Of a stretch of DNA of 59,801 nt, positions 26,031 to 48,018 are shown piece by piece. How positions within the stretch are numbered: position 1 is the stretch's first letter; every line of letters starts with the position of its first letter. Origin of the DNA: an uncultured Desulfatibacillum sp. (GTDB lineage: Bacteria > Desulfobacterota > Desulfobacteria > Desulfobacterales > SpSt-501); contig CAZNAX010000004.1 of NCBI GenBank assembly GCA_964570965.1, positions 1 to 59,801 of the forward strand. Direction: 5' to 3'. The notes beneath the pieces are model-generated. The model was not told the origin of the DNA and did no database searches. It saw only the letters and a program-made list of their open reading frames with translations. The translations under genes were made by a program, and so were the position numbers.

Positions 26031-26154
26031 AGCGGATCGCGTCAATCCTGGCTCTTAAATGCCGGTCATTGGGTTGAGCGCGGCCGGGTATGCCTTCGTC
26101 AGCAACACCGTTCGGCAGAAGAGGGCTTCCGCCATCATTCGTGGACAGAAACTC

Positions 26155-29403: not shown

Positions 29404-30557
29404 TGGAAAGCGGTTCGATCATAGGCATTCTGCGAAGCGTGCCGGAAACGGCCGCCCTGAAACCCGGAGACCGGCTGAACGTTAAGGTTTTGGAGGTCTT
29501 TGAAAACCAGCGCGCACTGGTGGACCTGGGTCGCTTCCGGGCGCTGGCCGATATCGCCTTCCCCGTGGCAGCAGGCGATGAGTTGCGGGTGCGGGTCCAG
29601 CAGACGGAGGGCCAGCTGCGGCTCCAGCTGCTGCCGGCTTCCGGTCCAGCTGCGCCCGAAGCCGCTGGCGCCGGCGGACCGGCGCGGGCGGCTTCGGCGG
29701 CAGCGCTCCAAACGGTTCATGTGCACATCGAGCAGCTGTCCGGTGCGATGCAGCGGCTGCCGAATGCGCCGCAGCTGCCGGCCGAATTCCGGCAAATGGT
29801 GGAAGCCTTGGGGATTTTTTTGAAGCCGCTCGATGCGGGTTCGCGCCCCGAGGCGCTGGCCCGCAAGCTCGGGGAATTCTGCGAGGATTCCGGGCTGTTC
29901 CTGGAACATCGGCTGGCAGGTGCCGTCAAGCGGACAGACGGCGAAGCCGGAGGGAAGTCGGCGCCGGAGTGTGGATCGGCGGGGGGATCGGAACGAATTC
30001 TGGCAACCGACCTCAAGTCCCGACTGCTTTTTCTTAAAGCCTTTTTTCAAAGCGAAGTCGGCCGGCAACTGATCCGTGACAGCCGGGAAGCGGCCGGCCT
30101 GGCTGGAGCGGCCGGTGAGCTGCTGGCCGATATCCGCGCCGGCCAGGAGCAGTTGACTCAGCCGGCCGGCGCGTCACACCCTTTCCAGATGGTGCATTTT
30201 GACCTGCCCATGGCGGGCGAACGTTGCCAGGCGGAATTGAAAATCGCCTATGCCCGGCGGGCGGGCGGCCGCAGGGATGAGGGGTATCGTGCAGCGATCC
30301 TGCTTGAACTCGATCAAATGGGAGCGGTCCGCGCCGATCTCATCCTGCAGGGCCATCGTCTTAACGTGTCCGTCTTTGTTTCCAACGCCCGGATGCGGGA
30401 TCTGGTCAACCGGCACGCGCCCGAGGTGCAACACGCACTGGCACCGTTTTTTGAACACGTAACCTTTCAAGTGTCGGTTTCGTCCCGGAAAATTGCCGGA
30501 TTTTTGAGCGAGGATTGGCGGTCCGCGGGTGAAACCCAAGTGGATGTGCGCGTATGA
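29400..30557 (+). CDS. FliK-like (flagellar hook-length control C-terminal domain) protein
   Basis: C-terminal LELDQMGAVRADL..LNVSVFV..LV..H..EV..AL; N-terminal small beta barrel; followed by FlhB_C gene; GTGA overlap with recC. Confidence 0.7.
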   Translation: MMESGSIIGILRSVPETAALKPGDRLNVKVLEVFENQRALVDLGRFRALADIAFPVAAGDELRVRVQQTEGQLRLQLLPASGPAAPEAAGAGGPARAASAAALQTVHVHIEQLSGAMQRLPNAPQLPAEFRQMVEALGIFLKPLDAGSRPEALARKLGEFCEDSGLFLEHRLAGAVKRTDGEAGGKSAPECGSAGGSERILATDLKSRLLFLKAFFQSEVGRQLIRDSREAAGLAGAAGELLADIRAGQEQLTQPAGASHPFQMVHFDLPMAGERCQAELKIAYARRAGGRRDEGYRAAILLELDQMGAVRADLILQGHRLNVSVFVSNARMRDLVNRHAPEVQHALAPFFEHVTFQVSVSSRKIAGFLSEDWRSAGETQVDVRV

Positions 30558-30829
30558 AACCGGAAAAGCCGATCCGAGCCGTAGCCCTGCGGTACGATCG
30601 CACCCAAAACGGAGCTCCCCGAGTGGTCGCCAAGGGCCGGGGGCAAGCGGCGGAAAACATCATCGCCCTCGCCCGGGAGCACGGGGTGCCGCTGCATGAA
30701 GATTCAAATCTGGCGGCCACGTTGAGCGCCCTTGATATCGAAACGGAGATCCCACCGGAGCTTTACCGGGCGGTGGCGGAAGTCCTGGCATTCATCTACC
30801 GATTGAACGGGAAGCACCCCCGGCCTTGA
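30554..30829 (+). CDS. Stand-alone FlhB C-terminal (EscU/YscU/HrcU, FlhX/YlqH-like) protein
   Basis: AVALRYD..GAPRVVAKG.G..AE.II.LA.EHGVP..ED, EIPPELYRAVAEVLAFIY. Confidence 0.92.
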   Translation: MKPEKPIRAVALRYDRTQNGAPRVVAKGRGQAAENIIALAREHGVPLHEDSNLAATLSALDIETEIPPELYRAVAEVLAFIYRLNGKHPRP

Positions 30830-33800
30830 CGCCCTTCGACCTCATTCGCACCCCCTTGAAGGGGGCCAGCCTCATCGAGGCGGCGGCCGGCACCGGCAAG
30901 ACGTTCACCATCGAGGGACTTTACGTCCGGCTGGTGCTCGAAAAGCAGCTGCCTGTCGAGCAGATCCTCGTGGTGACGTTCACCCGCGCGGCCACCGCCG
31001 AGCTGCGGGATAGGATCTACAAGCGCCTGGCCAAAGCGCGTGACGCTTTTGCCGGAGCCCCCGTCGACGACGACGAGCTCCTGCGACAGCTGGCTGCCGG
31101 CCACGTCAACCCCGTCCAGGCGGGGCGCCTGCTGCGCCAGGCGCTGATGGATTTCGACCGCGCTGCCATTTACACGATCCACGGGTTTTGCCAGCGGGTG
31201 CTATACGAAAACGCGTTCGAGACCGCCAGCGCTTTCAATGCGGAACTGCTCCGGGACCAGACCCCGATCCTGGTCGAAGTGGTGGAGGATTTCTGGCGCC
31301 GGTGGGTTTGCGGCCAAGCGCCGGAGTTCCTGCAATGGGCCCAAGGCACCCTGGGTGACCCGGGCTGCCTGCTGGAACTGGCCTGGAAATCGACCGCGGC
31401 TGAATTCGCGGTGACCCCCCGGCGTGATGAGCCTTGCCTGCGGGCCGCAACGCTTGATGCCTTTCGACAGCGGCGGCAAGAACTCGCGGCATGTTGGCGC
31501 GCCGGCCGCGACGATATCCGCCGCATTCTCATGAATGCGCCGCTGAACGGCGTTCGGTTCGGCAGCCTGACGCCCGGGGAAGGCGGCGGGCCGTCGGGGC
31601 GGGAGCGGGTCGTCCGGGGATTGGTCGATGCCATGGATGCTACCTGCGCGCACGAATCCTCCGATTTCCCGCCGGTGGCCGCGGTCTTGAAGCTAAGCTC
31701 GTCCCATCTTGCCCGCGCGACGCTCCGCCGCCGGCAGGCTCCGTCCCACTCGGTCTTCGACGCCTGCGAGGCGCTTCATCGGGCCGCACAGGCGCTGGCT
31801 CCGGAAATGACCGGGCAGCTGCACTATCTCAAATCGCGCTTGCTCGACGTTGTGCCAGCCGACTTGGAACGGCGCAAGTCCGAAAAGGGGTGGGTGTCCT
31901 TCGACGATCTGCTGCGGCGGCTGGCCCGGACGCTGGACACCGGCAGGGGCGAAGCGCTGGCCGATGCCGTGCGCCGGCGTTATCAGGCCGCACTGGTGGA
32001 CGAGTTCCAGGACACCGACGATCTCCAGTACGCTGTGTTCTCGCGGCTGTTTTCATCGCCGCACCACCTGCTCTTCATGATCGGCGACCCCAAGCAGGCC
32101 ATCTATGGATTTCGCGGGGCGGATATTTTTTCCTACCTACGCGCCGCCCAGGGAGCCGACGCGCGTTTCACCCTCATCCGCAACTGGCGGTCTTCACCCG
32201 GTCTGGTGCAGGCGGTCAACACGCTTTTTTCGCAATCGGCCGCGCCCTTTCTTTTTCCCGGGATCGACTTCGTCCCGGGCCAGGCCGCCCGGGACGAAGC
32301 GACAGCGATGGCGGCGGAGCCTGCGATGATCATCTGGCACTTAGATTCCCGACCGCACCGCGACGACGGCAAAGCCCTGACCAAGCCGCATGCGCAAGCG
32401 CTGATCGCCCGTGCCGTGACCCTGGAAATCCAGCGGCTGACCGCGTCCGGCCCCGCCGCCGTCCGGACCGGCGACATTGCCGTACTGGTGCGGACCAACA
32501 GCCAGGCCGCGTTGATGAAAGCGCATCTCTCTGCGGCCAGGGTCCCTTCGGTCATCTACAGCACGGCCAACGTGTTCGACTCGACCGATGCCCACGAACT
32601 GCTGGCCGTGCTATCCAGCATCGCCGAACCCCAGAGCGCGTCTAAACTGAAAACGGCGCTGGCCACTCATCTGCTGGGCCTTTCCGCCGGCGAAATCGCC
32701 GCCGGAGACCGGGCCGAGGATTCATGGGAGCCGCGCATCCGGAGGCATTGGGAGTATTTCCGCCTGTGGCACGAACGCGGGTTTCCATCCATGTTCCGGC
32801 AATTCCTGTCCGGTGAGGCGGTGAAGCGGCGCCTTCTCTGCCTGCCGGACGGCGAGCGCCGTCTGACCAACCTTCTGCACCTGGCCGAGATTGTCCACCG
32901 TGCCGCCGGTGAGGAAAACCTCGGTCTGGCCGGTCTGGTGACGTGGCTTGCCCGTCACGTCGATCCCCACGCGCAACGCTCCGAGGAAACCCAGCTGCGA
33001 CTGGAAAGCGATGAGCTCGCCGTCAAGATCGTCACCGTCCACCGCAGCAAGGGGCTGGAATATCCGGTGGTGTTTTGCCCGTTCGCCTGGTCCGGTTCCG
33101 CTTTGCGGGGCGGCGATGTCTTTTATCACGATCCCGCGAACGGTAATCGCCTGACGGCCGACATCAGCGGCGATATGGATTCGCCCCACCGGCTCCGCGC
33201 CCAAAACGAGATCCTGGCCGAAAATCTAAGAATGCTCTATGTTGCCGTGACCCGCGGGCGGGAGCGCTGCTATCTCGCCTGGGGCCGGATCAACTCCGCC
33301 GAAACATCGGCGCTGGCCTACCTGTTGCGCTCTGACGCCTCGGCGACGGACGCCGCCCTCGAAAGCGACTGGATCGGGCGGCTGAGGAAAGAATTCAATT
33401 CCATCGGAGACGATGAGGTTCGGAGCCGGCTGGACGATCTCGCCGCCGCCTCGGACGGCGCCATCGTGATCCGCCGGCTGCCGGAGCAGCCGCCATCGAA
33501 AAGCGCGGATGAAGCCCGGGTGTCCCTTCAGCTAGCCTGCCGCGAATTCCGCGGAACGATCGACCGCACTCGGTCCCTGACCAGCTATTCCGCTCTCGCG
33601 GCGGCAGGCCCCGCCGAAACACCGGACCGCGATGGCGGTTACCCGGCGGTGGCCGGCGGAGCCCCGGCGCAGGATTCCCGCCCCGCCGCCGCCGACGCCA
33701 ACGGTATGGCAGATTTCCCGACGGGCGCGCGGGCCGGTACGTTTTTTCACTCTATCTTCGAAACGATCGATTTCACCCGACCGGTTTGCCGGACGGTCGT

Positions 33801-34446
33801 TTCCCGAAAGCTCAGGGAGTTCGGATTCGAGCCGTCCTGGACGGAACCCGTCTGCCGCATGATCGCCGAAGTTCTTGAGGTGCCGCTGTTCGCCGGTGCA
33901 TCTGCGGTGCGCCTGGCCGAGGTGGGCCTCAGCCGGCGGGTCAGCGAGATGGAATTCTACTTCCCGCTGAACCTGGTGACTCCGGCGCTCCTGGAAGAGG
34001 TTTTCGCGCGCTACGGGACACCGCCGGCATTTGAGGAAACGCCGATGGCCGCCGGCATCGAGCCCCTGCACTTCGCGCCGACGCGCGGCTTTATGAAAGG
34101 CTTCATCGACCTGGTATTCGAACACGGCGGGCGGTACTACCTGGTTGACTGGAAATCGAATCGTTTGGGCGCAGCGCCGGAAGCATATCACCGCAACCAA
34201 CTGCGCGCCGTGATGTGCGAGCATCGCTACGACCTGCAGTATCACATCTACACCTTGGCGTTGCACCAGTACCTGCGATGGCGAGTTCGCGGCTACGAGT
34301 ATGCTCGAGACTTCGGCGGGGTATGCTATGTTTTTCTGCGCGGAGTCAGCTGCGATTACGGGCCGGATTACGGGCTTTTCTGCAACCGGCCCGAACCCCG
34401 GCTGGTCCACGCGTTGGGAGAGGCGCTGATACCGGACTATGTCTGA
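30826..34446 (+). CDS. recB: Exodeoxyribonuclease V beta subunit
   Basis: AAAGTGKT, VVTFTRAATAEL, VDEFQDTD, IGDPKQAIY.FRGAD, TVHRSKGLEY, GFIDL..LVDWKSN nuclease; TTG start. Confidence 0.97.
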   Translation: MTPFDLIRTPLKGASLIEAAAGTGKTFTIEGLYVRLVLEKQLPVEQILVVTFTRAATAELRDRIYKRLAKARDAFAGAPVDDDELLRQLAAGHVNPVQAGRLLRQALMDFDRAAIYTIHGFCQRVLYENAFETASAFNAELLRDQTPILVEVVEDFWRRWVCGQAPEFLQWAQGTLGDPGCLLELAWKSTAAEFAVTPRRDEPCLRAATLDAFRQRRQELAACWRAGRDDIRRILMNAPLNGVRFGSLTPGEGGGPSGRERVVRGLVDAMDATCAHESSDFPPVAAVLKLSSSHLARATLRRRQAPSHSVFDACEALHRAAQALAPEMTGQLHYLKSRLLDVVPADLERRKSEKGWVSFDDLLRRLARTLDTGRGEALADAVRRRYQAALVDEFQDTDDLQYAVFSRLFSSPHHLLFMIGDPKQAIYGFRGADIFSYLRAAQGADARFTLIRNWRSSPGLVQAVNTLFSQSAAPFLFPGIDFVPGQAARDEATAMAAEPAMIIWHLDSRPHRDDGKALTKPHAQALIARAVTLEIQRLTASGPAAVRTGDIAVLVRTNSQAALMKAHLSAARVPSVIYSTANVFDSTDAHELLAVLSSIAEPQSASKLKTALATHLLGLSAGEIAAGDRAEDSWEPRIRRHWEYFRLWHERGFPSMFRQFLSGEAVKRRLLCLPDGERRLTNLLHLAEIVHRAAGEENLGLAGLVTWLARHVDPHAQRSEETQLRLESDELAVKIVTVHRSKGLEYPVVFCPFAWSGSALRGGDVFYHDPANGNRLTADISGDMDSPHRLRAQNEILAENLRMLYVAVTRGRERCYLAWGRINSAETSALAYLLRSDASATDAALESDWIGRLRKEFNSIGDDEVRSRLDDLAAASDGAIVIRRLPEQPPSKSADEARVSLQLACREFRGTIDRTRSLTSYSALAAAGPAETPDRDGGYPAVAGGAPAQDSRPAAADANGMADFPTGARAGTFFHSIFETIDFTRPVCRTVVSRKLREFGFEPSWTEPVCRMIAEVLEVPLFAGASAVRLAEVGLSRRVSEMEFYFPLNLVTPALLEEVFARYGTPPAFEETPMAAGIEPLHFAPTRGFMKGFIDLVFEHGGRYYLVDWKSNRLGAAPEAYHRNQLRAVMCEHRYDLQYHIYTLALHQYLRWRVRGYEYARDFGGVCYVFLRGVSCDYGPDYGLFCNRPEPRLVHALGEALIPDYV

Positions 34447-36262
34447 TCGAATCGAGAACAAACTGTTTTCAGCCCTCGACCTGCACTTCGCCAGGTTCAT
34501 CAGCCGCTTCGGCGGAGCAGACACCGAGAGCCTGTACCCGGCAGCGGCGCTGGTCAGCCGCGCTACCGGCAACGGCGACGTCTGCCTGGATCTCCAAGCC
34601 TGGGCGGGAAAACCAGTCGATGGCCTACCGGGGGCGGCGGCGTGCCCGCCCGCGGACCGCTGGGCCTCCGCCCTGGGCACCTGCCCGGCGGTCGGGCGCC
34701 CGGGGGAGCGCCGGCCGCTGGTGCTGGACGAGGGCAACCGCCTCTACCTTTACCGCTACTGGGAATACGAAAACCGCCTGGCCGCCCGCATTCTAGAGCG
34801 CGCCGGCTGCCCGCCGGAGCACCTCGACCCCGCGTGCCTGCAGGCTGCCATCCGGTGTAATTTCGCCGACGGCGGACCGGAGACCGACTGGCAGGTGGTG
34901 GCCGTTGCCGTGGCTCTGCTCAAGCGCTTTGCCGTGATCACCGGCGGGCCGGGAACCGGCAAGACCACGACGGTCGCCAAGATCATCTCCGTGTGGGAGG
35001 ATATACACCAGGGGCGGTCGACCCGCGTGCTGCTGGCCGCGCCCACCGGCAAAGCCGCGGCCAGACTCAAGGAATCCCTGCGGCAGCGTCCGGCGCGGCC
35101 GGTGCGGACAGACGGCTGCGGTCCACTGCCGCCGCACGAGGTTTACACTCTGCATCGCCTTCTCAGGCCCGTGCCCGGCACCCCCCTGTTCCGCCACAAC
35201 GCCGAGAACCCTCTGCCGGTCGACCTGATGATCGTCGACGAAGTCTCCATGGTCGATCTGGCCCTTATGGCCAAGCTGGTGGACGCGCTGCCCGGATCGG
35301 CCCGACTGGTGCTGATCGGTGACAGAGACCAGCTCGCATCGGTGGAGGCCGGTTCGGTGTTGGGAGACATCTGCGGCCGGACGCACCGCCCGGGGTTCTC
35401 ACCTGAGTTCGGGGATTTGATTCGGCGCGTGACCGGTCAGGTCGTCCCCATCCAATCGGACCGCCGTCCGCTGCAGGATAGCATCGTAGAGCTGCAGACC
35501 AGCCATCGGTTTTCCGCCGACAGCGCCATCGGGGCCCTCAGCCGGGCTGTGAACCAGGGCGATGCGCCTGGCACGCTGGCCATTCTGGCGCGGACCGCAG
35601 ACGGAGCCCTCACCTGGCAGGAGCCGCAGCCCGGGCGCAACGGCATGGCCGAGTTGGAACAGCACCTGACGGCAGGCTACGCGGCGTACCGGGCACAGGG
35701 GGACCCCCACCGAATCCTGCAGGAACTCGGCCGGTTCAAGGTGCTCTGCGCCCACCGGGCCGGTTTCAACGGCGTGGAGGCGGTCAACCGGCTGGTGGAG
35801 CGGGTTCTGATGCGTCAGGGGAAAATCCGGATCAACCCGCGCCGCAGCAGCCCCTGGTATTCCGGCCGTCCGATCCTGGTCACCCAGAACGACTACAGTC
35901 TGGGGCTTTTCAACGGAGACATCGGAGTCACCCTGAGCGATTCGGCCGAGATCCCTGAACGTCTGGCCGTCTTTTTCGCGGATGCGGCCGGAGGCCTGCG
36001 CCGCTTCCTGCCGTACCGCCTGCCCGAACACGAAACGGTTTACGCCATGACGGTGCACAAAAGCCAGGGGTCTGAATTCGAAGACGTGCTGCTGATCCTG
36101 CCGGCCGAGGACTCTCCGGTGCTTTCCCGTGAACTATTATACACCGCCCTGACCCGGGCGCGGAAGCGTTTTACACTCTTCGGTCGGCGTGAGGTTCTCA
36201 CGACCGCCATTCACCGCCGCATCGAGCGCACCTCAGGTCTGCGCGAAGCGCTCTGGGGGTAG
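34439..36262 (+). CDS. recD: Exodeoxyribonuclease V alpha subunit
   Basis: GGPGTGKTT, LAAPTGKAAARL, VDEVSMVD, GDRDQLASV, NGDIG, MTVHKSQGSEF. Confidence 0.97.
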   Translation: MSDRIENKLFSALDLHFARFISRFGGADTESLYPAAALVSRATGNGDVCLDLQAWAGKPVDGLPGAAACPPADRWASALGTCPAVGRPGERRPLVLDEGNRLYLYRYWEYENRLAARILERAGCPPEHLDPACLQAAIRCNFADGGPETDWQVVAVAVALLKRFAVITGGPGTGKTTTVAKIISVWEDIHQGRSTRVLLAAPTGKAAARLKESLRQRPARPVRTDGCGPLPPHEVYTLHRLLRPVPGTPLFRHNAENPLPVDLMIVDEVSMVDLALMAKLVDALPGSARLVLIGDRDQLASVEAGSVLGDICGRTHRPGFSPEFGDLIRRVTGQVVPIQSDRRPLQDSIVELQTSHRFSADSAIGALSRAVNQGDAPGTLAILARTADGALTWQEPQPGRNGMAELEQHLTAGYAAYRAQGDPHRILQELGRFKVLCAHRAGFNGVEAVNRLVERVLMRQGKIRINPRRSSPWYSGRPILVTQNDYSLGLFNGDIGVTLSDSAEIPERLAVFFADAAGGLRRFLPYRLPEHETVYAMTVHKSQGSEFEDVLLILPAEDSPVLSRELLYTALTRARKRFTLFGRREVLTTAIHRRIERTSGLREALWG

Positions 36263-36409
36263 CTGCGGCCGGCGACCCTCGATCGGCGCTTCCAAGACGA
36301 AAAACTTCGCTGCTCCAAGAGCGGCTTGCGGCGGCCATATTTACCCGCTGCGCCGGGTGTGCTATTTTTGAACCAGCGATGGGCCATCGATGCATACAAG
36401 GAAACCAGA

Positions 36410-36925
36410 ATGATGAACGCTGGCATTAGAACAGGCATCGGGTTTGATTTCCACCGGCTGGTTGCGGGCCGCTCGCTCGTTCTGGGCGGAGTCCCGATTC
36501 CCTATGAAAAGGGACTCTTGGGTCATTCCGATGCGGATGTGTTGGTCCATGCCATTTGCGACGCCCTGCTCGGGGCCGGTGGTCTGGACGACATCGGCAT
36601 TCACTTCCCGGACAGCGATCCTGCCTACCAGGGGATTTCCAGCCTGGAGCTTCTAAGAAGGACCTGCACGCTCATCGCCGCCGACGGATTCCGGATCGTC
36701 AACGTAGATGCCGTCGTGCTGGCCGAAGCGCCCCAGATCATGCCGTTTCGCCGCGAGATATCGAGCCGGATTCTTCAGGCCATGCAGATCGCTGCCCCGC
36801 AGGCTTTCAATCTCAAGGCCACAACCACCGAAGGCTGCGGAATGATCGGGCGCGGAGAGGGAATCGGCGCCATGGCCACCGCGTTGATCGAACGCCGGCG
36901 GGCGGATCGGCACGGGGGGGCATGA
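36410..36925 (+). CDS. ispF: 2-C-methyl-D-erythritol 2,4-cyclodiphosphate synthase
   Basis: GIGFDFH, GHSDADV..HA..DALLGA, DIG.HFP, KATTTEG. Confidence 0.96.
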
Positions 36926-38916
36926 GCGCTTTTCAGCTGAAGTCCGCGTTCGAGCCGGCCGGCGACCAACCGTCCGCCATCGAAGCGCTCTACCGGCACC
37001 TGGCCGCCGGCCGAAAGCACAGCGTTCTTTTAGGGGTCACCGGCTCCGGCAAGACCTTCACGATGGCGCAGGTCATCGCACGGATCAACCGCCCGACGCT
37101 CGTGATTGCACCGAACAAGACCCTGGCGGCCCAGCTCTACAGCGAATTCCGCCTGCTGTTCCCCGATAATGCGGTCGAATATTTCGTCAGCTACTACGAC
37201 TACTACCAACCGGAGGCCTACATCCCGACTTCGGACACTTACATCGCCAAGGATTCCTCCATCAACGACATGATCGACAAGCTGCGGCACTCCGCCACGC
37301 GCTCCGTCCTATCGCGCCGCGATGTGCTGGTGGTGGCGAGCGTTTCCTGTATTTACGGTCTCGGCGCTCCGGAAGACTACCTGTCCATGCGGGTGGAGAT
37401 CGAGGCCGGTGCCGAGTTCAGCCGAGAACAGCTGCTGGCTGATCTCGTCGCCATGCATTATGAACGCAAAGATCATGATTTCTTTCGGGGAACCTTCCGG
37501 GTGCGGGGAGACCGCGTCGAAATTTTTCCAGCCTACGAAGAAGACCGGGCCGTCCGGGTGGATTTTTTCGGCGACACGGTGGAGGGCGTCGCCGAGATCG
37601 ATGCCCTGCGCAACACGGTCCTGCGTCGACTCCAGCGCGGCGTCATTTTTCCGGCCAGCCACTACGTCACCCAGAAGACCACCCAGCAAAAGGCCATGCA
37701 GACCATCCGCACCGAGCTGAGCCGCCGCATTGATTTTTTTCGCGACCAAGGCAAGCTGCTGGAGGCGCAGCGGATCGAGGAGCGCACGCATTTCGACCTG
37801 GAGATGATTCAAGAGTTGGGCTATTGCAACGGCATCGAAAACTACTCCAGACACTTGACCGGCCGCCGGGCGGGGGAGCCGCCGCCGACCCTGCTCGATT
37901 ACTTTCCGAGGGATTTTCTGCTGTTCATCGACGAGAGCCACATCGCCGTGCCCCAGCTCCGGGGGATGTACCGCGGGGATCGCTCGCGCAAGGAAACTCT
38001 GGTGGCGTACGGCTTCCGTCTGCCGTCGGCCCTGGACAACCGGCCGCTGATGTTCGAAGAGTCGCAGTCCCGCTTCAACCAGGTGGTCTACGTTTCCGCC
38101 ACCCCGGCGGAGCATGAGATGCGCCGATCGGGGGATGCCGTCGTCGAGCTCATCGTGCGGCCGACGGGACTGGTCGACCCCGTGATGGAGGTCCGCAGCG
38201 CACGCCACCAGGTCGACGACCTGCACGATGAAATCCGCATCCGGCAACAGCGCCGCGAGCGCGTGCTGGTGACCACCCTCACCAAGCGCATGGCGGAAGA
38301 CCTTACCGAATACTATGCGGACCTCGGGCTCAAGGTCCGCTACCTGCATTCGGACATCACCACCCTGGAGCGCATGGACATCATCCGGGATCTGCGGCTG
38401 GGACACTTTGACGTCCTGGTGGGCATCAACCTGCTGCGCGAAGGCCTCGACATCCCCGAAGTGTCCCTGGTGGCCATTCTGGACGCAGACAAAGAGGGAT
38501 TCCTGCGATCGACCCGGTCGCTCATTCAGACCTGCGGCCGCGCGGCGCGCAATGCCAACGGGCTGGTCATTCTCTACGCCGACAGGGTCACCCCCTCGAT
38601 GCAGCAGACCATCGACGAAACCAACCGCCGCCGCCAGATTCAACATGCTTACAATCAGGCCCACGGCATCACGCCCACATCGGTGCACAAGGCGATCGCC
38701 GGGGCCTTCGATTTCGCCGCCGGACCGCTGGCGCCGACGGCCGGCCGGGTCGGCGAAGAACCTGCTGTCTATGATTCCCTGGACGAGGTCGACGCCGAGA
38801 TCCGCCGGCTCGAAAACCAGATGCATCAGGCGGCCAAGGAGCTGGATTTCGAACGGGCGGCCGAGCTGCGGGACCGCATCCTGGGCTTGCAGCGGCTGAT
38901 CGTTCTGGAGACATGA
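36922..38916 (+). CDS. uvrB: Excinuclease ABC subunit B
   Basis: [63 protein letters not shown] domain. Confidence 0.98.
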
Positions 38917-40778
38917 ACGCGCCTTCGCAACCGCCGCCGCCCGCCGCCCCTGCCCAGAAGGCGGCCGCCGCCCCCTTGGAACCCGGTGTCTACCTGATGA
39001 AGGCGGCCGACGGCCGAATCTTGTATGTCGGCAAGGCGCGCAGTCTTCGCAAGCGCTTGTCGGCCTATTTCAAAACAAGCACTCATTCCGGCTCCAAGAT
39101 CCATGCGCTGGTGGCGCGGATCGCCGACATCGAGATCATCCTGACCCGCACCGAAAAAGAAGCTCTCATCCTCGAGTCCAACCTCATCAAGCGCCACCGG
39201 CCCCGCTTCAACGTGGTCCTCAAGGACGACAAGCGCTACCCCTCCCTGCGGCTGGATCCGAAAGAAGCCTATGCCCGCTTCAGCGTCGTGCGGAAGATCG
39301 GCGGGGATGAGGCGCTTTATTTCGGACCATTCGCCTCCGCGCAGGCCGTGCGCGCAACCCTCAAGGTGCTCAACCGAACCTTCAAACTGCGCAAGTGCAA
39401 GGCGAACGAATTCCGCACCCGCACCCGGCCCTGCCTGCACTGTCAGATGAACGGCTGTCTGGCGCCCTGCTGTCGGGATGTCGCCCCCGAGGTCTATCGT
39501 GAACACGTTCAGGAGGCGGTTCTCTTCCTGAAGGGACGCACCCAGGAGCTGCTGGGAAAGATTCGCGGGGATATGGAGGCGGCTGCCGCTGCTCAGGAAT
39601 ATGAAAAGGCGGCGCGGCTGAGGGACAAGCTGTTTGCGTTGCAGCGGACTACCGAGAAACAGGTTGCGGTGACCACCGACTTTATGGACCGGGACGTCTT
39701 CGCGGCGGCTTCCGCCGATGGCGCCGCCGTGATCACCTATCTGGAGGTTCGCGGCGGCTTTTTGACAGGCTCCCGCCACTTCGGCTTTCCCGAGAGCATG
39801 GCTGCCGAAGATGAGATGCTGGGCGTTTTCATCCGCCAGTTTTACGAGGACCGTGCGCTGGTGCCGGGGGAGCTTTTCGTGTCGCATGCGCTCGATGACC
39901 AGGAGTGGATCGAGCAATGGTTGACCGCACAGAAAGGCAAGCGGGTGCAGATTCACCGGCCGGAGCGCGGCGAAAAGGCACGCTTGCTGGAGATGGCCTT
40001 GAACAACGCCCGCACGGAACTCGACGCTCTGCTGTCCCGACGCTCCAGCGGGGCCGCGCTGTTGTTGCGGCTGCAACGTCGTCTGGAGCTCTTGCGCTGT
40101 CCGCAGCGCATCGAATGTGTCGACAACTCGACCCTCATGGGATCAGACCCCGTGGCCGGCCTCGTGGTGTTTGTGGACGGCCGGCCGGAACCGGCCGCCT
40201 ACCGCCGATACCGGATCACCGGCGTGGCCGTGCCGGATGATTATGCGTCCATGTCGGAGATTCTAAGGCGCCGACTGGGAAAGGGGCCGGCATCCGAGCC
40301 GTTTCCCGACCTGTTGATGGTGGACGGCGGCAAGGGGCAACTCGGCACGGCCATGGCGGTCATGAAGGATTTGCAAATCGAAGGGCGCATGGATGTCATC
40401 GGGATCGCCAAAAAGGACTCGGAGCGGGGGGAGGTGCAAGACAAAATTTTCCTCCCCGGACGGTCGAATCCGGTAAATTTCGGCCGCGAGGGCGATCTGC
40501 TGCTTTTTCTCCAGCGCATACGGGACGAAGCGCACCGCCACGCCGTTGCCTTCCATCGACGACGGCATCGGGCGACCGTCCTGACATCGGCGCTGGACGC
40601 GATCCCCGGCGTCGGCAAGGTGCGCAAAGCCCAGCTGATCGATCATTTCGGCAGCTTTGAAGCGATCCGGGCAGCACCGCTCGCTGAACTGAGCGCGCTG
40701 CCCGGTTTCAATCGGAAACTGGCCGAAGCGGTGAAGGCTGTACTTGGCTCGGACCTTGACGGCCGGAACGCAACGTGA
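38913..40778 (+). CDS. uvrC: Excinuclease ABC subunit C
   Basis: PGVYLM..YVGKA GIY-YIG, four-Cys cluster, [28 protein letters not shown], HhH. Confidence 0.97.
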
Positions 40779-42052: not shown

Positions 42053-42661
42053 ATGGCTGTCGTAAATCTCAAGAAGCACCAGATCGAGTGCAAGATCGTC
42101 TACTATGGTCCGGCGCGGTGCGGCAAGACCACCAACCTGGAATATATCCATCGGACCTTCTCCCAGCATGTCCGGGGGCAAATGATCTCCATTGATACCG
42201 AGGGGGATCGGACCTTGTTTTTCGATTTCTTGCCGCTGGAACTTGGAAAGGTCAAAGGGTGCGATGTGCGCGTGCAGCTTTACACCGTGCCGGGACAGGT
42301 CCGGTACGCCTCCACCCGCAAGCTGGTCCTCCGCGGGGCGGACGGAGTGGTTTTCGTTGCCGACTCGCTTGAGGTGCGGCGTGAACAGAATATGTTGGCG
42401 TTGAAGGACCTTCAACAGAATCTGCGGGACTACCATCTGAGCATTTTTAAACTCCCATTGGTGATGCAGTTCAACAAACGCGATTTGGCCGAAGCCGATA
42501 TCCCGCTGATGCCGATCGAGCAGATGGCCCACGAGTTGAACCGCCAGCTGAAAGCGCCTGCTCTGCCGGCGGCGGCCCTGAACGGGAAGGGGGTCGGCAA
42601 GACACTGCAGGAATGCCTTCGGCTCGTGCTGCGCAAGCTTCAGCAGGAGTTGAATTTTTGA
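42053..42661 (+). CDS. mglA: MglA-family small GTPase
   Basis: KIVYYGPARCGKTTNL, DRTLFFDFLPL, QLYTVPGQV, GADGVVFVADS, QFNKRD. Confidence 0.9.
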   Translation: MAVVNLKKHQIECKIVYYGPARCGKTTNLEYIHRTFSQHVRGQMISIDTEGDRTLFFDFLPLELGKVKGCDVRVQLYTVPGQVRYASTRKLVLRGADGVVFVADSLEVRREQNMLALKDLQQNLRDYHLSIFKLPLVMQFNKRDLAEADIPLMPIEQMAHELNRQLKAPALPAAALNGKGVGKTLQECLRLVLRKLQQELNF

Positions 42662-42715: not shown

Positions 42716-43909
42716 ATGGCGTCTGATTTCGATTTTTCCGGAAAGCTGAGCTTCCTGAACCTCGGCGAGCTGCTGCAACTGCTCGGCAGCAGCTCCGCCA
42801 CCGGCACCCTGCGGGTCTACAGTCCCTTCCGGGCGGAAGCCGGCCGGGTCGTTTTCGAAAACGGAAACCCCGTCGATGCAACGGACGGGGCCCAGTCCGG
42901 TGCGGCGGCTCTTTTCACCCTTTTCGGCTGGATGGAGGGACGATTCGAATTTACTCGGGAGAGGGTGGCGTGTAAGCGAACCATCCAAAAGGGCCGGATG
43001 GAGCTCATTTTAGACGGCCTGCGCCTGCTCGATGAAGGCAAGATCGCCAAGCTCGGACCGGCGCCTTCGACGGCAGCCTCCAGCCAAGTGGAAGCCCCGG
43101 TATCCGCCGGCCGCTCATCGGACATGCCCCCGATCATCAAGGGGCCCTTGGTCGACTACGCCTACGTCATCGACGAGGAGAGCTTTTACGACGGGGATGA
43201 AATCGTGCACGAGGGCGCCCACGGGAACTGGATCTGGGTGATCCTGGAAGGGGCCGCCGAAATCATCAAAACCACACCGAAGGGCCCGCTTAAGCTGCTG
43301 CGGGTGGGCGATGGCGCTTTTCTCGGCAGCGTGGCGTCTCTGCTCATCGGCGACAATGTCCGCAGCACCACCGTCGTCGCCTGCGGAAACGTTCAGCTGG
43401 GCATGCTGGACTCCCAGCTGCTGGCCGGTGAGCTGGCCAATCTTTCGGCGGATTTCAAAAGTCTGATCAAGAGCCTGGACAACCGTCTGAGGTGCGTGAC
43501 CGGGATCGGCGCCGACGCCCATGCGCGCACCACGACCTTCATGGATCTAATCAAGGGAAAAAAAATGGCCCTCAAGGAAGGCCAGCATGAGGAGCGGCTG
43601 TTCCGGATTCGCAACGGCGAAGTGATCGTCGCCCGCAGCCTGGGTGCTGGTCATGTCCCGCTGGCCCAGCTCCAGAAAGGCGATTTTTTCGGGCATATCC
43701 CGTTTCTGACGATCGGCCATGAGCCTTTCGCAGCGGCCGTGTTTTCCTCCCCCGACCTTAAATTGGCGGCGGTGGACTCACAGAAGATAACCGCCGAATA
43801 CAAACAGCTGTCGGCTACCCTGCGCAACATCATCGAGTACCTGGCCGCTTGCATCTCGGCGACAACCTTGGTAACTATCAATCGGGTCAGCCGGTCCGGC
43901 ATCCGGTAA
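42716..43909 (+). CDS. DUF4388 (PatA_N) domain plus two cNMP-binding-like domains
   Basis: FSGKL..L.LGELLQLL..TG.L..GRV.F..G.PVDA..L..W.EG.FEF; EG..G.W.WVILEG..FLG..RSTTV; second GDFFG domain. Confidence 0.85.
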   Translation: MASDFDFSGKLSFLNLGELLQLLGSSSATGTLRVYSPFRAEAGRVVFENGNPVDATDGAQSGAAALFTLFGWMEGRFEFTRERVACKRTIQKGRMELILDGLRLLDEGKIAKLGPAPSTAASSQVEAPVSAGRSSDMPPIIKGPLVDYAYVIDEESFYDGDEIVHEGAHGNWIWVILEGAAEIIKTTPKGPLKLLRVGDGAFLGSVASLLIGDNVRSTTVVACGNVQLGMLDSQLLAGELANLSADFKSLIKSLDNRLRCVTGIGADAHARTTTFMDLIKGKKMALKEGQHEERLFRIRNGEVIVARSLGAGHVPLAQLQKGDFFGHIPFLTIGHEPFAAAVFSSPDLKLAAVDSQKITAEYKQLSATLRNIIEYLAACISATTLVTINRVSRSGIR

Positions 43910-43943: not shown

Positions 43944-44288
43944 ATGAAGAACGAAGAAAAGCGCAAACATCAACGCTTCAGTTCGCTTAACCTCTCCTAT
44001 GTTTGCCTGGACGAGGACCAAAAAGCGGTGAAACAGGGCATGGGACGTACGTTGAACCTCTCTGAATCCGGGATTTTGCTGGAAACGCATTTCCCGATCG
44101 CAGAGGCCCATCACGTCATTCTCAGCATCGGCCTCGGCGATGACCTGGTAGATCTCCGGGGGCGGCCGGTGCATGTGCACGATGCGGGGCAGGGGACCTA
44201 TGAAATCGGGATCGAGTTCGTCGAACCCGACGAAAAAGCGCTGCGCGCCGTGAGGCAATTCGTTCAATCCCTCTCGCGGGAGGAATAG
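43944..44288 (+). CDS. Single-domain PilZ protein
   Basis: RKHQR (RxxxR) and NLSESG (D/NxSxxG), IGIEF. Confidence 0.9.
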
Positions 44289-44340: not shown

Positions 44341-45237
44341 ATGAATCCAGTGATCAGCCGAACGGATTTCCCTGATCTGAAACTTTTGAAGCGCGGCAAA
44401 GTGCGGGACATGTATGATCTGGGCGAACACCTGCTGATGGTGGCGACCGATCGGATTTCCGCCTTCGATGTCGTCATGCACGAGCCGATCCCGGACAAAG
44501 GCATCATCCTGACTCAAATTTCGCTTTTCTGGTTCGAGATGATGCGGTCGACCGTTGCTAATCACGTCGTCGCCAGCGATGTGGACGAATACCCCAAGAT
44601 CTGCCGGCCTTACGCCGCTTCGCTAAAGGGCCGAAGCCTGCTGGTCAAGAAAGCCGTTCCGCTGCCCATTGAGTGCGTGGCCCGCGGGTATATTTCCGGC
44701 TCCGGCTGGAGCTCCTACCTGCAGTCCGGCGAGGTCTGCGGCATCCGCCTGCCGAGGGGATTAAAGGAATCCGACCGGCTGGCGGAGCCCATCTTCACCC
44801 CGGCCACCAAGGAGGAAGCCGGGATGCACGACATCAACGTCGATTTTGAGGAGGCACGCAAGCGCATCGGTTCGGAGTTGTCCGCGCGCGTGCGCGATTT
44901 GACCCTGACGCTTTACCGGAGAGGCGCTGCTTTTGCCGAAACGAAGGGGATCATTATCGCCGACACCAAATTCGAATTCGGCCTCGTCGGTGATGAGCTC
45001 ATCCTCATCGACGAGCTGCTGACCCCGGACTCATCCCGCTTCTGGCCGGAGGCTTCCTATCAACCGGGCGGCCCGCAACAAAGCTACGACAAACAGTACA
45101 TGCGCGATTACCTGATATCCACCCGCTGGAATAAAACTCCGCCGCCTCCGACCCTGCCGGAGGAGGTCATCCGCAACACCCGCCTCAAATACCTCGAAGC
45201 GCTCAGACAGCTGAGCGGCAGCAGCCATGGCCTCTGA
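44341..45237 (+). CDS. purC: Phosphoribosylaminoimidazole-succinocarboxamide synthase
   Basis: [57 protein letters not shown]. Confidence 0.97.
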
Positions 45238-46237
45238 GTGTCTCGGATCGGATGGAGAAGGCTCCCGCATCGTCCCATTGACGGATATCGACTCTGAAGA
45301 TGAGCGTTTCCGAATCACCACCCTCCGCGAAAGCGCTGGTTTGCAGAAATCCATCCACCGGTTTGGACTGTGCCCGCCGCCGCTGGTTGCACCGGATGAC
45401 GGCGGCTTTATCATCGTAAGCGGCTTTCGGCGGGTGAACGCCTGTCAGGCGCTGGGATGGAATTCGATCCCTGTGCGGCTTCTCCGATCGGCATCCGGCT
45501 ATGAGCTTGCCCTAAAAGCCGTTGCCGAAAATTCACTGGAACGACCGCTGAATCTCATCGAAACCTCCCGAGCCTTGAACCTGCTCGAGCAGGCCGCTGG
45601 CGACGGTCGACTCGCCGATGCGGACGCCTTGGCCCTCGGGCTCCCGACCCACCGGGGCGTGACGTCGCAGTTGAAGCGCCTCTGCCGGATGCCGGTCGAG
45701 GTTCAGGGCGGCGTCCTGGAGGGGGCGCTTTCCTTTGCCATGGCCTGTGAGCTCGGTTGCATGGAAGAGGGGCTCGCGACCGCCTTTGCCCGTCTGTTTC
45801 GCCGGCTCAAGCCTAGTCTGAACAAACAGCGGGAAATCGTAAGCCGGGTCGCGGAGATCGCCGTTCGGGAGAGAATCGATCCGCGGCAGGTCCTGGACGA
45901 ATGCGGGTTGATGCATACAACCGGACCCGCGGACCCGGAGCGCAACCAGCAGATTCATGCCATCCGCCGACGGCTGCGACAACGCCGCTATCCGGCGGTT
46001 GCGGCCGCGGAGGACAACTTCCTTGCCTTGCGGCAGCGGTTGAAGCTGGGTGAAATGATTCAACTGGCACCGCCCAGGGATTTCGAGGGAGCGGGCTTCA
46101 CCCTGACGCTGAACTTTCAGACTATCGCAGACGTTGCGCACCTGCGCGCCAAGCTGGATGAACTGATCGACCACCCGGACTTCAATCGTCTGCTGACCGG
46201 AAAGGGCAGGGGGTTCGAGGAGTCGTCGGGTTCATGA
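45227..46237 (+). CDS. Orphan ParB/Spo0J-family protein
   Basis: [51 protein letters not shown]; no parA nearby. Confidence 0.8.
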
Positions 46238-47337
46238 AAATCGCCGAGCTCTACGTCGATGCCGCGCTATCCGAACGGCCTGAAGTCGAGGCGGCCCGCC
46301 GCCGGTTCAAGGTGCCGGCCCGCATCGTGCGGAGCGCGGAGGAGGTTTATGCGGCCGTCGCCGCGGCGCAAGACCCCATCGGACACGGCAAACGCGTGCT
46401 CTATCTCACCCGCAACCGGGGCGCCTTCGTCAAGTCCTGCCCCGGCACGCGCCACTACACGTGCTGCGGGTATAAGATCCTGCATATCGGAACCTTCTGC
46501 AGCATGGACTGTTCCTATTGCATCCTGCAGGCGTATTTTCACCCGCCGGTTCTGCAATATTTTCTGAACCATGACGAGATGGACCAGGAGTTGGAACGTC
46601 TCTTCGCCACCCGAACGATCCACCGGCTGGGAACCGGCGAATTCACCGACAGCCTGATCTGGGAGCCCTGGACCGATCTCTCGGCGAGACTGATCCGCAA
46701 ATTTGCCGGTCAGGACAGCTGCGTCCTGGAGCTGAAGACCAAGACCACGGAGATCGACTCGCTGCTGGATCTGCCGCATCGACGTCGAACGATCCTGGCA
46801 TGGTCCCTGAACACCGCTGAGGTCATTCGGACCGAAGAACGGGGGACGACTTCGCTCGATGCACGCCTGAAAGCAGCTGCCCGCGGCGCCGCGCACGGCT
46901 ATCCCCTGGCGTTCCATTTCGATCCGATCGTCATCGCCGACGGCTGCGAGGCGGATTATCGCCGAACCGTCGAGCGTCTGTTCGCCGCCGTCGATCCGCG
47001 CCACATCGTTTGGATCAGCCTGGGAGCCCTGCGCTTCATGCCGGAACTCAAGGCCGTCCTTCGAAAGCGGTTTCAGCACTCACGGATCGTCTACGGCGAG
47101 TTTATCGGCGGCCTGGACGGAAAAATGCGCTACTTCAAGCCGCTGCGCATGAAGGTCTACCGAGACATCGCGGCCGCCATCCGTGCACGGGCGCCTTCGG
47201 TCTGCATCTATCTGTGCATGGAAGACGACGAGGTGTGGCAGCATGCGCTGGGGTTCCAGCCTGACTCCGGCGGCGGGCTGGCCCGCATGCTGGACGAGGC
47301 GGCGGCTCGGCAGTGCCATATGAATCCGGCCGGCTGA
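46234..47337 (+). CDS. Spore photoproduct lyase-like radical SAM enzyme
   Basis: CSMDCSYC, LKTK, WSLN..VI..EE.GT.SL..RL.AA..GYPL.F..DPI. Confidence 0.85.
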   Translation: MKIAELYVDAALSERPEVEAARRRFKVPARIVRSAEEVYAAVAAAQDPIGHGKRVLYLTRNRGAFVKSCPGTRHYTCCGYKILHIGTFCSMDCSYCILQAYFHPPVLQYFLNHDEMDQELERLFATRTIHRLGTGEFTDSLIWEPWTDLSARLIRKFAGQDSCVLELKTKTTEIDSLLDLPHRRRTILAWSLNTAEVIRTEERGTTSLDARLKAAARGAAHGYPLAFHFDPIVIADGCEADYRRTVERLFAAVDPRHIVWISLGALRFMPELKAVLRKRFQHSRIVYGEFIGGLDGKMRYFKPLRMKVYRDIAAAIRARAPSVCIYLCMEDDEVWQHALGFQPDSGGGLARMLDEAAARQCHMNPAG

Positions 47338-47346
47338 GGACGTCCG

Positions 47347-48018
47347 ATGACACGGTTCTGCCGAGAGCGCTTGCTGCATTCGGTTGGCTGGGTTCTGCTG
47401 GTGCTTCTGGGGCTCGCATTCGGGCCTGCTCCGCCGGCGGCGGCCGAAACTGTCCGCGTCAAACGTATCAACGACGGCGACACGGTGCAGTTGGCGGATG
47501 GACGGTTGCTGCGCTACATCGGTATCAACGCACCGGAAATCGACCATGCGCGGCACACGGCCCAACCGTGGGGCTTTGAAGCGCGCACGCAAAATGCCGA
47601 GCTGGTCGCAGGGCAATCGGTGCGGCTGGAATTTGATCTCGAGCGGCTGGACGACTACGGCCGGACCCTGGCTTACGTCTTTCTGTCGGACGGCACGATG
47701 GTCAACGAAAAGCTGCTGCGGTCGGGCGTGGCATTCTGCCTGTTCATGCTGCCGAACATCAAATACGAAAGCCGGCTGCTGGCGGCGCAGCGTGCTGCCA
47801 TGCGGGAGCGGCGGGGCCTGTGGCAGAACTGGCGCGAAGGAGAAGGCCGGTATGTCGGCAACCGCAATTCCCGGCGGTTCCATCTGGCAAGCTGCCCGGA
47901 AGCCAAGCGTATGGCTGCTCGAAACCGCGTGATGTTTTCGAGCCGCTGGGACGCCTTCTGGGCCGGCTACTCCCCCTCCCGTGAATGCCAAGCGGACTTT
48001 TTCATTCCTTCCGATTAA
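47347..48018 (+). CDS. Secreted thermonuclease (SNase) with C-terminal Ada-like metal-binding domain
   Basis: Signal peptide AAA|E, DGDT, RYIGINAPE, DDYGRTLAYV, YVGNRNSRRFH..SC..GY.P..EC. Confidence 0.9.
   Translation: MTRFCRERLLHSVGWVLLVLLGLAFGPAPPAAAETVRVKRINDGDTVQLADGRLLRYIGINAPEIDHARHTAQPWGFEARTQNAELVAGQSVRLEFDLERLDDYGRTLAYVFLSDGTMVNEKLLRSGVAFCLFMLPNIKYESRLLAAQRAAMRERRGLWQNWREGEGRYVGNRNSRRFHLASCPEAKRMAARNRVMFSSRWDAFWAGYSPSRECQADFFIPSD

Follow-up and report, generated by a model that had tools for sequence, protein, structure and literature searches.

A large subfamily of the spore photoproduct lyase fold with four additional conserved cysteines and a ParB/Noc-like partner

We analyzed a 59,801-nucleotide stretch of DNA (hereafter the window) from an uncultured Desulfatibacillum sp. 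(assembly GCA_964570965.1, contig CAZNAX010000004.1, positions 1 to 59,801 of the forward strand), which was obtained from freshwater-sediment and soil metagenomes. At the locus under study, the stop codon of a gene for a ParB/Noc-like protein, referred to hereafter as the partner, overlaps the start of a gene for a radical S-adenosylmethionine (SAM) protein related to spore photoproduct lyase (SPL), referred to hereafter as the enzyme. The reading frame of the enzyme is unbroken and its product contains 11 cysteines, at residues 69, 77, 78, 89, 93, 96, 163, 238, 324, 328 and 361. An earlier note on this DNA, made from the sequence alone, had described the enzyme as an SPL-like protein that lacks the canonical hydrogen-atom relay and has gained extra cysteines. 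The residues that it named were all found in the indexed translation: C69, C77 and C78 in KSCPGTRHYTCCGY (residues 67-80), C89, C93, C96 and Ile97 in GTFCSMDCSYCILQA (residues 86-100), and Glu136 of the RLGTGEFTDS stretch in IHRLGTGEFTDSL (residues 129-141). The positions of these and other features are given in Table 1.

Table 1. Positions of the genes and sequence features discussed in the text. Coordinates are those of the window except for the Deinococcus and Kitasatospora proteins, which are numbered within their own loci.
Feature	Position	Strand	Evidence or remark
SPL-fold radical SAM enzyme, 367 aa	46234..47337	+	open reading frame; Pfam SPL; AlphaFold2 model; Foldseek
ParB/Noc-like partner gene, 336 aa	45227..46237	+	stop overlaps enzyme start (ATGA)
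'RRYP' helical module of partner, ~aa 196-262	45812..46012	+	alignment with enzyme N-terminal extensions in other lineages
CPGTRHYTCC, codons 69-78	46438..46467	+	base-binding loop of SPL and part of 6-residue insertion; C69, C77, C78
CSMDCSYCI, radical SAM CxxxCxxC motif, codons 89-97	46498..46524	+	Y95 conserved, Ile97 at SPL Tyr98/99 position
RLGTGEFTDS, codons 131-140	46624..46653	+	Glu136 at SPL Cys140/141; T138, D139 opposite SAM-binding Ser142, Asp143
C-terminal extension of ~40 residues, codons 326-367	47209..47334	+	Y326-L-C328-M-E330 motif, then helical tail
Deinococcus/Kitasatospora 'SPL family' proteins	L093 271-1332; L094 139-1332
recC	26059-29403		Pfam
recB	30826-34446		Pfam
recD	34439-36262		Pfam
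uvrB	36556-38916		Pfam
uvrC	38913-40778		Pfam
Small Ras-like GTPase	42053-42661		upstream of purC
DUF4388 + cNMP-binding protein	42716-43909		upstream of purC
PilZ-domain protein	43944-44288		upstream of purC
SNase-domain protein	47347-48018		Pfam SNase, 81 bits

The enzyme scored 83.6 bits with the Pfam SPL model (PF20903), well above the cut-off of 27, and 21.8 bits with the Pfam Radical_SAM model, for which the threshold is 29.5. The curated NCBIfam models for SPL were not satisfied. The score was 100.7 bits against a cut-off of 400 for TIGR04070, the spore photoproduct lyase equivalog, and 33.5 bits against 437.55 for TIGR03886, and neither model reached its cut-off on the enzyme or on 5 further subfamily members that were scanned. 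The AlphaFold2 (AF2) model of the enzyme, built from a 127-sequence alignment, had a pLDDT of 97 and a pTM of 0.94. When this model was used as a Foldseek query, the sole full-length match was SPL (4rh0/4fhc; TMq 0.79, TMt 0.85, 22-23% identity), and other radical SAM enzymes reached a TM-score of ~0.45 at most. Similarly, a profile of 127 subfamily members matched 4rh0 over profile positions 4-329 with an E-value of 4.7e-43. The enzyme is thus a member of a large uncharacterized subfamily of the SPL fold that lies outside SPL proper. It has an intact radical SAM core on this fold and is probably an active enzyme.

The subfamily was recovered by two kinds of search. At least 7,055 clusters at 90% identity matched with E <=1e-5 in a word-index search. 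When 50%-identity representatives were searched exhaustively with HMMER, 2,063 matched, 486 of them with E <1e-30. Members were identified in Desulfobacterales, KSB1, Elusimicrobia, Leptonema and Bacteroidota, and the subfamily therefore extends across several phyla of mostly anaerobic bacteria. Conservation counts given below were taken from 140 diverse full-length representatives with 35-55% identity to the window enzyme. Genome loci are the best 80 of at least 480 confirmed related stretches, nearly all of them from metagenome-assembled genomes of Desulfobacterales/Desulfobacterota. A phage or plasmid origin and a role in defense were considered and rejected: IMG/VR contained no subfamily relative, plasmids carried no subfamily member and only distant canonical SPLs, and the enzyme matched no PADLOC anti-phage defense model. 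A literature search, with most subscription journals outside its coverage, returned nothing on this branch, the Cys motif, the ParB-like partner, a combination of ParB with radical SAM, or SPL homologs with auxiliary clusters.

The features that mark the radical SAM superfamily are present in the enzyme, namely the CxxxCxxC motif, an aromatic residue before its third Cys, and the SAM-binding residues. C89, C93 and C96 were each found in 140/140 representatives, and Y95, which corresponds to the conserved Tyr96 of SPL, in 139/140. D139, K170 and S191, which show little or no variation, align with the SPL SAM ligands Asp143, Lys174 and Ser195. Conservation in all 140 representatives extended to R131, G135, D139, E166, K170, H228, D230, P231, S262 and R267; K168 was present in 139 and E136 in 134, the remainder having Q, D or N at the latter position. 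With C69 in 139/140 and C78 in 140/140, the features singled out by the earlier note are not chance properties of one sequence.

The positions of the SPL hydrogen relay were located by three alignments: phmmer against the PDB chains of the Geobacillus thermodenitrificans (Gt) SPL, the profile of 127 subfamily members against the same chains, and a MAFFT alignment with the Bacillus pseudomycoides and Clostridium botulinum SplB proteins (from plasmid records). All three placed I97 opposite Tyr98 of Gt SPL (Tyr99 of the Bacillus subtilis (Bs) protein) and E136 opposite Cys140 (Gt) or Cys141 (Bs), as the earlier note had aligned them. It had named a Cys at the 141 position as the result that would speak against its reading, and the residue at that position is Glu136. 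The Tyr partner of the relay is Ile97 in the enzyme, which therefore lacks this mark of SPL proper. Because position 97 varies across the subfamily (I in 66 of the 140 representatives, F in 34, Y in 23, V in 11 and A in 5), Ile97 cannot be taken as a defining loss. The suggestion of a different mechanism or substrate accordingly stood in part: the scores with the two NCBIfam models and the replacement of Cys141 and Tyr99 agree that this is not an orthodox SPL, but the loss at position 97 does not define the subfamily.

The hydrogen-donor sites of SPL are occupied in the enzyme by Glu136, at the 141 site, and by C69, at the Ser76-equivalent site. SPLs from Clostridium have Ala at the 140/141 site and a conserved Cys at the equivalent of Ser76, 4.2 Å from the 3' thymidine (PMC3467042). 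In the profile alignment C69 fell exactly opposite Ser76 of Gt SPL, and in the MAFFT alignment it shared a column with the Cys of 'FQSCKPSAHY' from C. botulinum. The top PDB match of the enzyme was 4rh0, an engineered S76C/C140A Geobacillus SPL, and this is because 4rh0 has a Cys at the Ser76-equivalent position. The claim that the enzyme lacks a hydrogen-atom relay was therefore too broad as written, since C69 occupies the Clostridium-type donor position: the enzyme has no relay of the Bacillus type but may have a donor of the Clostridium type.

Residue 75, the counterpart of the conserved aromatic residue in the 'SAEY' loop of SPL, showed a relationship of its own with position 97. Y75 (window 46456-46458) and I97 (46522-46524) covary in a 276-sequence alignment. 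Tyr75 was found in 54/82 sequences with an aliphatic residue at 97 and in 1/23 with Tyr at 97. This pattern suggests packing of the two side chains against each other within the pocket.

Besides the CxxxCxxC motif, four cysteines are conserved in the subfamily. In addition to C69 and C78, C77 was found in 109/140 representatives, and C328, likewise Y326, M329 and E330, in 139/139, that is, in all representatives with a residue at that column. P70 (131/140) forms a Cys-Pro motif with C69. C77 is absent from 31 sequences, and 29 of these carry a Cys at position 71, so that 'CPCT....xC' replaces 'CPGT....CC'; among the 109 sequences that have C77, Cys71 is present as well in only 4. The association was strong by Fisher's test (p = 2e-23, relatedness uncorrected), the swap required at least 14 parsimony changes on a rough neighbor-joining tree, and G71-C77 was within the top 20 covarying pairs of the 276-sequence alignment. 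C361 and C238 are conserved only inside the Desulfobacterales clade.

Three to four extra conserved cysteines are the sequence criterion for an auxiliary cluster, and the subfamily has them in C69, C77 or C71, C78, and C328. Since four extra cysteines are kept while one position moves, behavior expected of a metal site, the four probably form such a site. The earlier proposal that the extra cysteines could bind metal is consistent with the conservation and with the C71/C77 swap, although C328 has to be added to the three cysteines then described, which makes a set of four. The putative metal center would most likely be an auxiliary iron-sulfur (Fe-S) cluster, located where SPL holds the 3' thymine. 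Fe-S is favored because of the radical SAM setting, the placement of the ligands in the pocket, the Cys-Pro motif, and the contribution of ligands by an N-terminal segment and a C-terminal tail, as in lipoyl synthase.

The position of C328 bears on this assignment. All six outgroup SPL-family proteins of the MAFFT alignment terminate (...YFT, ...YII, ...YWT, ...YAF) exactly where the subfamily runs on with YLCME, and the AF2 model has helices at 332-339 and 348-360 in the extension. C328 lies 1-2 residues from the position of Gt Tyr339, with an uncertain register at this terminus; because the SPL C-terminus bears Tyr339, C328 should also be at the active site. Residues 76 and 330 are the sole isolated beta-bridges of the AF2 model, a hint that the Cys loop may pair with the YLCME segment. 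Mutual information from 276 sequences, a shallow alignment, mapped no contact between the Cys loop and the C-terminus and recovered only G71-C77 and Y75-I97.

In SPL, the Ser76-Lys77-Ser79 loop grips the 3' thymine via its backbone and Tyr339 hydrogen-bonds the 5' dihydrothymine (PMC3467042). Compared with SplB of the Bacillus/Geobacillus type (4fhc; TIGR04070), the enzyme keeps the CxxxCxxC motif with Tyr before the third Cys, the counterparts of Asp143, Lys174 and Ser195, and the ligands of the lesion phosphate (R267 for Arg273 and K297 for Lys309). It differs, apart from Glu136 for Cys140/141 and Ile97 for Tyr98/99, by three changes around the pocket: a six-residue insertion after the base-binding loop, which carries the C77/C78 pair, a hairpin that is six residues shorter, and the ~40-residue C-terminal extension with C328. 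The base ligand Arg193 is replaced by Ala189, Glu268 and the hairpin-tip residues Arg304/Tyr305 fall in segments absent from the subfamily, and the region of Tyr339 is replaced by Y326-L-C328. Charged residues specific to the subfamily are found on the barrel strands (E166/K168, in LELK versus RFV; H228/D230, in HFDP versus VAP), and these four residues and the subfamily-specific E136 line the barrel.

Other proteins of the SPL fold share some of these properties. Clostridium-type SplB and 4rh0 are like the enzyme in that the 141 site has no Cys and a Cys at the Ser76 equivalent aligns with C69. Unlike the enzyme, Clostridium SPL has Tyr99, a long hairpin and a short C-terminus, and it has neither the CC insertion nor C328. 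The Deinococcus and Kitasatospora proteins, named 'spore photoproduct lyase family protein' by NCBI and assumed here to be of the TIGR03886 type, also come from non-sporulating hosts and also have Glu at the Cys141 position (VGENSD/IGENGD versus GTGEFTD), but Tyr99 is retained in them, and they have no Cys loop, insertion, HFDP, LELK or C-terminal extension. Glu at the Cys141 site is therefore common to two uncharacterized branches of the SPL fold, and the residue to which the earlier note had drawn attention, although present, is not peculiar to the enzyme.

Outside the SPL fold, the putative metal site would resemble by analogy that of LipA (compare MoaA and MiaB), with extra cysteines just ahead of the first core strand, a further ligand contributed by the very C-terminal end of the chain, and a site beside the substrate. 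The likeness implies no homology beyond the shared core. The enzyme belongs to another subfamily, reaches a Foldseek TM-score of only ~0.45 with enzymes of this type, has a different motif spacing, and shows no sign of sulfur donation.

The partner scored 24.3 bits with Pfam ParB_N, slightly under the cut-off of 26.3. Its AF2 model (pLDDT 87.6) gave as best Foldseek matches Noc (7nfu), ParB (7bnk/6sdk) and KorB (8qa9), which aligned over the N-terminal and helix-turn-helix (HTH) domains with E-values down to 2e-8. The arginine patch of the partner reads SGFRRVNA, in which Phe replaces the Glu of the GERR box. By its predicted fold and arginine patch the partner is a member of the ParB/Noc family. 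It resembles the CTP-dependent DNA clamps ParB, Noc and KorB in having the N-terminal ParB and HTH domains and a GxRR arginine patch; unlike these it has the RRYP module in place of the C-terminal dimerization domain, and it occurs beside a radical SAM enzyme or joined to one in a single protein. Bacillus SplB, in contrast, has as its partner the unrelated protein SplA, which was tried as a relative of the RRYP module and rejected (1.7 bits). A 2013 survey of SplB-like proteins connected other clades with ImuB-C, DUF4130 and UDG but not with ParB (PMC3765255).

Gene order and fusions tie the partner to the enzyme. It was encoded in the upstream flank at 34 of 70 informative loci, directly adjacent at 22 of them, and also at one KSB1 locus. 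One representative of 705 aa (P0127) is a full fusion of partner and enzyme; residues 18-313 of the window partner match its N-terminal 296 aa with an E-value of 7e-25. At least 12 representatives have a 100-125-residue N-terminal extension homologous to the RRYP module (LNKQREI..L..EIA.RE...LRQRRYP). The extensions aligned together with the window partner were those of P0204, P0206-09, P0216, P0218, P0245, P0250, P0256, P0258, P0265, P0240 and P0251. A hidden Markov model of the module found matches in 41/88 loci, and a profile search with it yielded just 10 fragments and no new architectures. Two Elusimicrobia-type representatives (P0240 and P0251; locus L082 1845-3851) combine PNP_UDP_1, the RRYP module and the enzyme in one protein. 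Their PNP domain resembles HpnG, DeoD, AMP nucleosidase and MTA/SAH nucleosidase, though weakly; it might act on an adenosylated product or dispose of 5'-deoxyadenosine. The partner is linked to the enzyme by overlap, synteny and fusion, and hence by more than synteny alone.

In the best Desulfobacterales loci the recurrent gene order was PilZ-PurC-ParB-like-enzyme-SNase-(EF-G), and the PilZ-PurC synteny was kept across the loci of this order. The purC (SAICAR synthetase) frame runs 11 nt into the start of the ParB-like gene (window 45227-45237), so that purC, partner and enzyme may share one transcript. A block of DNA-repair genes assigned by Pfam lies 5-20 kb upstream of the enzyme (window 26059-40778). 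In several Desulfobacterales genomes either a regulator of ~213 aa, by eye TetR-like, or a protein that by eye is cytidylate kinase-like is encoded between the partner and the enzyme (loci L019, L021, L022, L035, L041, L043 and L046 at about 4000-4950; L044 and L075). The same TetR-like regulator precedes the enzyme in partner-less loci as well.

A gene for a staphylococcal nuclease-domain (SNase) protein was found within 700 nt downstream of the enzyme in 54/72 Desulfobacterales loci. In the window, the N-terminus of the SNase protein resembles a signal peptide by eye (…LLVLLGLAFGPAPPAAAE), its Cys-bearing C-terminal tail (RFHLASCPEAK…SPSRECQ) has no Pfam match, and PADLOC matched the protein to 'SNc+LTD'. 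SNase was rejected as a functional partner on account of the apparent signal peptide and its absence from loci of the KSB1, Elusimicrobia and Leptonema types, and its linkage is most likely inherited synteny. A KSB1 genome has the order glycosyltransferase-ParB-like-enzyme-aldo/keto reductase. A family-2 glycosyltransferase lies directly upstream of the partner or fusion at the KSB1 and P0127 loci, and an aldo/keto reductase lies directly downstream at the KSB1 loci and an Elusimicrobia-type locus (few loci in both cases; L083-L085 3130-7585, L081 2899-3726, L082 3806-4753).

We propose, with a confidence about evenly balanced between yes and no, that this is an SPL-fold enzyme with a rebuilt pocket containing a second metal center, which acts together with its ParB/Noc-like partner on DNA. 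The reaction would probably be a different one from that of SPL and as yet undescribed. In such a mechanism the partner would bring the enzyme to DNA, a single nucleotide or lesion would enter the smaller pocket, and the 5'-deoxyadenosyl radical would attack the bound nucleotide or lesion. The second center, as electron sink or source, substrate anchor or sulfur source, or else the thiol of C69, would then complete the reaction, and SAM would be consumed instead of being regenerated via a Cys-Tyr relay. The DNA substrate would probably be presented as a single flipped nucleotide because the metal site would fill the 3'-thymine pocket. SAM is assigned the role of co-substrate because the subfamily has no conserved Tyr relay and because some members carry fusions of the adenine-nucleosidase type. 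The analysis establishes the fold, the motifs, their conservation, the swap between positions 71 and 77, the gene fusions and the place of the enzyme outside SPL proper, whereas metal binding, DNA as the substrate, the SAM stoichiometry and the reaction itself are what we infer.

A bolder form of the proposal is tentative and, in our estimate, unlikely to be right: that DNA-directed radical SAM enzymes are of two kinds, the second being this subfamily, with an Fe-S cluster in its pocket, delivery by a ParB/Noc-like protein, and a novel DNA chemistry. One possibility for that chemistry would be that 5,6-dihydropyrimidine lesions are directly re-oxidized to the normal bases, a reaction in which hydrogen is abstracted from C6 as in SPL and an electron passes to the auxiliary cluster. 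Radical adenosylation or thiolation of a base, with stoichiometric consumption of SAM, is another possibility.

Several observations weigh against the proposal that the enzyme uses a second metal center and acts with its partner on DNA. About half of the loci have no partner in the upstream flank, the synteny data come chiefly from one order, and the full ParB-enzyme fusion is one metagenomic gene call. The PNP fusions could equally indicate a nucleoside-type substrate. The four-cysteine site is predicted from conservation and alignment, and this conservation would suit a zinc site or a thiol/disulfide relay too. Finally, C69 is at the proven Clostridium-type donor position and may be a donor, not a ligand, in which case only three ligands would remain.

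Among the alternatives, the one that survives best is that the enzyme is a genuine dark-repair thymine-dimer lyase of the spore photoproduct (SP) type that serves non-sporulating anaerobes, with C69 as the donor and with C77, C78, C328 and a fourth ligand binding a structural zinc. C69 does align with the Cys of 'SCKPS' in C. botulinum SplB and with S76C of the rescued mutant 4rh0 (PMC3467042), and Clostridium SPLs are likewise without Cys141; the Tyr98/99 partner of the relay, however, is not conserved (I/F/Y/V/A). In the pocket, phosphate-binding R267 and K297 and the SAM-binding residues are retained, whereas Arg193 and Glu268, which bind the bases, and Tyr305 at the hairpin tip are missing and five subfamily-specific charged residues line the barrel. 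The TIGR04070 score, a quarter of the cut-off, also argues against an SP lyase. The recBCD and uvrBC genes upstream would suit a repair enzyme, but the hosts come from dark sediments and soils and form no spores, and they are therefore without the spore DNA state in which SP arises. Moreover, the cysteines are in the pocket, whereas structural zinc sites are usually peripheral. On balance we regard an SP lyase as unlikely.

Rather doubtful, too, is a substrate other than DNA, such as a free nucleotide, a nucleoside or another phosphorylated small molecule, in which case the partner would act through its NTP-binding domain and not as a DNA clamp. The fusions to domains of the purine-nucleosidase/phosphorylase type would fit such a substrate but are explained equally by removal of 5'-deoxyadenosine. 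The purC gene is directly upstream in Desulfobacterales, with its stop overlapping the partner start, yet this linkage is confined to one order; the glycosyltransferase and aldo-keto-reductase neighbors, for their part, recur in distant lineages. Shortening of the DNA-flipping hairpin is consistent with a small substrate; the conserved ligands of the SPL lesion phosphate speak against one, as do the best structural matches of the partner, which extend to the DNA-binding HTH domain in Noc, ParB and KorB. A metal-free radical relay, in which C69 gives hydrogen and its thiyl forms a disulfide radical anion with C78, C77 or C328 in place of the Cys-Tyr relay, is improbable: C69 is at the donor position, the neighboring cysteines are conserved, and the loss of Tyr97 in most members is consistent with another route of thiyl-radical disposal, but four strictly conserved cysteines with a swap of 71 for 77 that keeps their count are more typical of a metal site, the Cys-Pro motif recalls Fe-S ligands, and we know of no precedent for such a relay in the SPL fold.

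SPL is the textbook radical SAM enzyme of DNA repair. It was called the sole DNA-associated radical SAM enzyme until the report of a phage enzyme in the paper that makes this statement (PMC8989533). Members of the present subfamily are labeled in public databases as 'DNA photolyase', 'spore photoproduct lyase' or 'SPL family radical SAM protein', and the evidence does not support the first two of these names. Even the conservative outcome is useful, for it corrects a widespread annotation and defines a testable set of residues (C69, C77, C78, C328, E136, H228 and D230) for the subfamily. If the lesion pocket does contain an auxiliary cluster, the subfamily would bring a radical chemistry new for nucleic acids and show a ParB-type partner in a new role.

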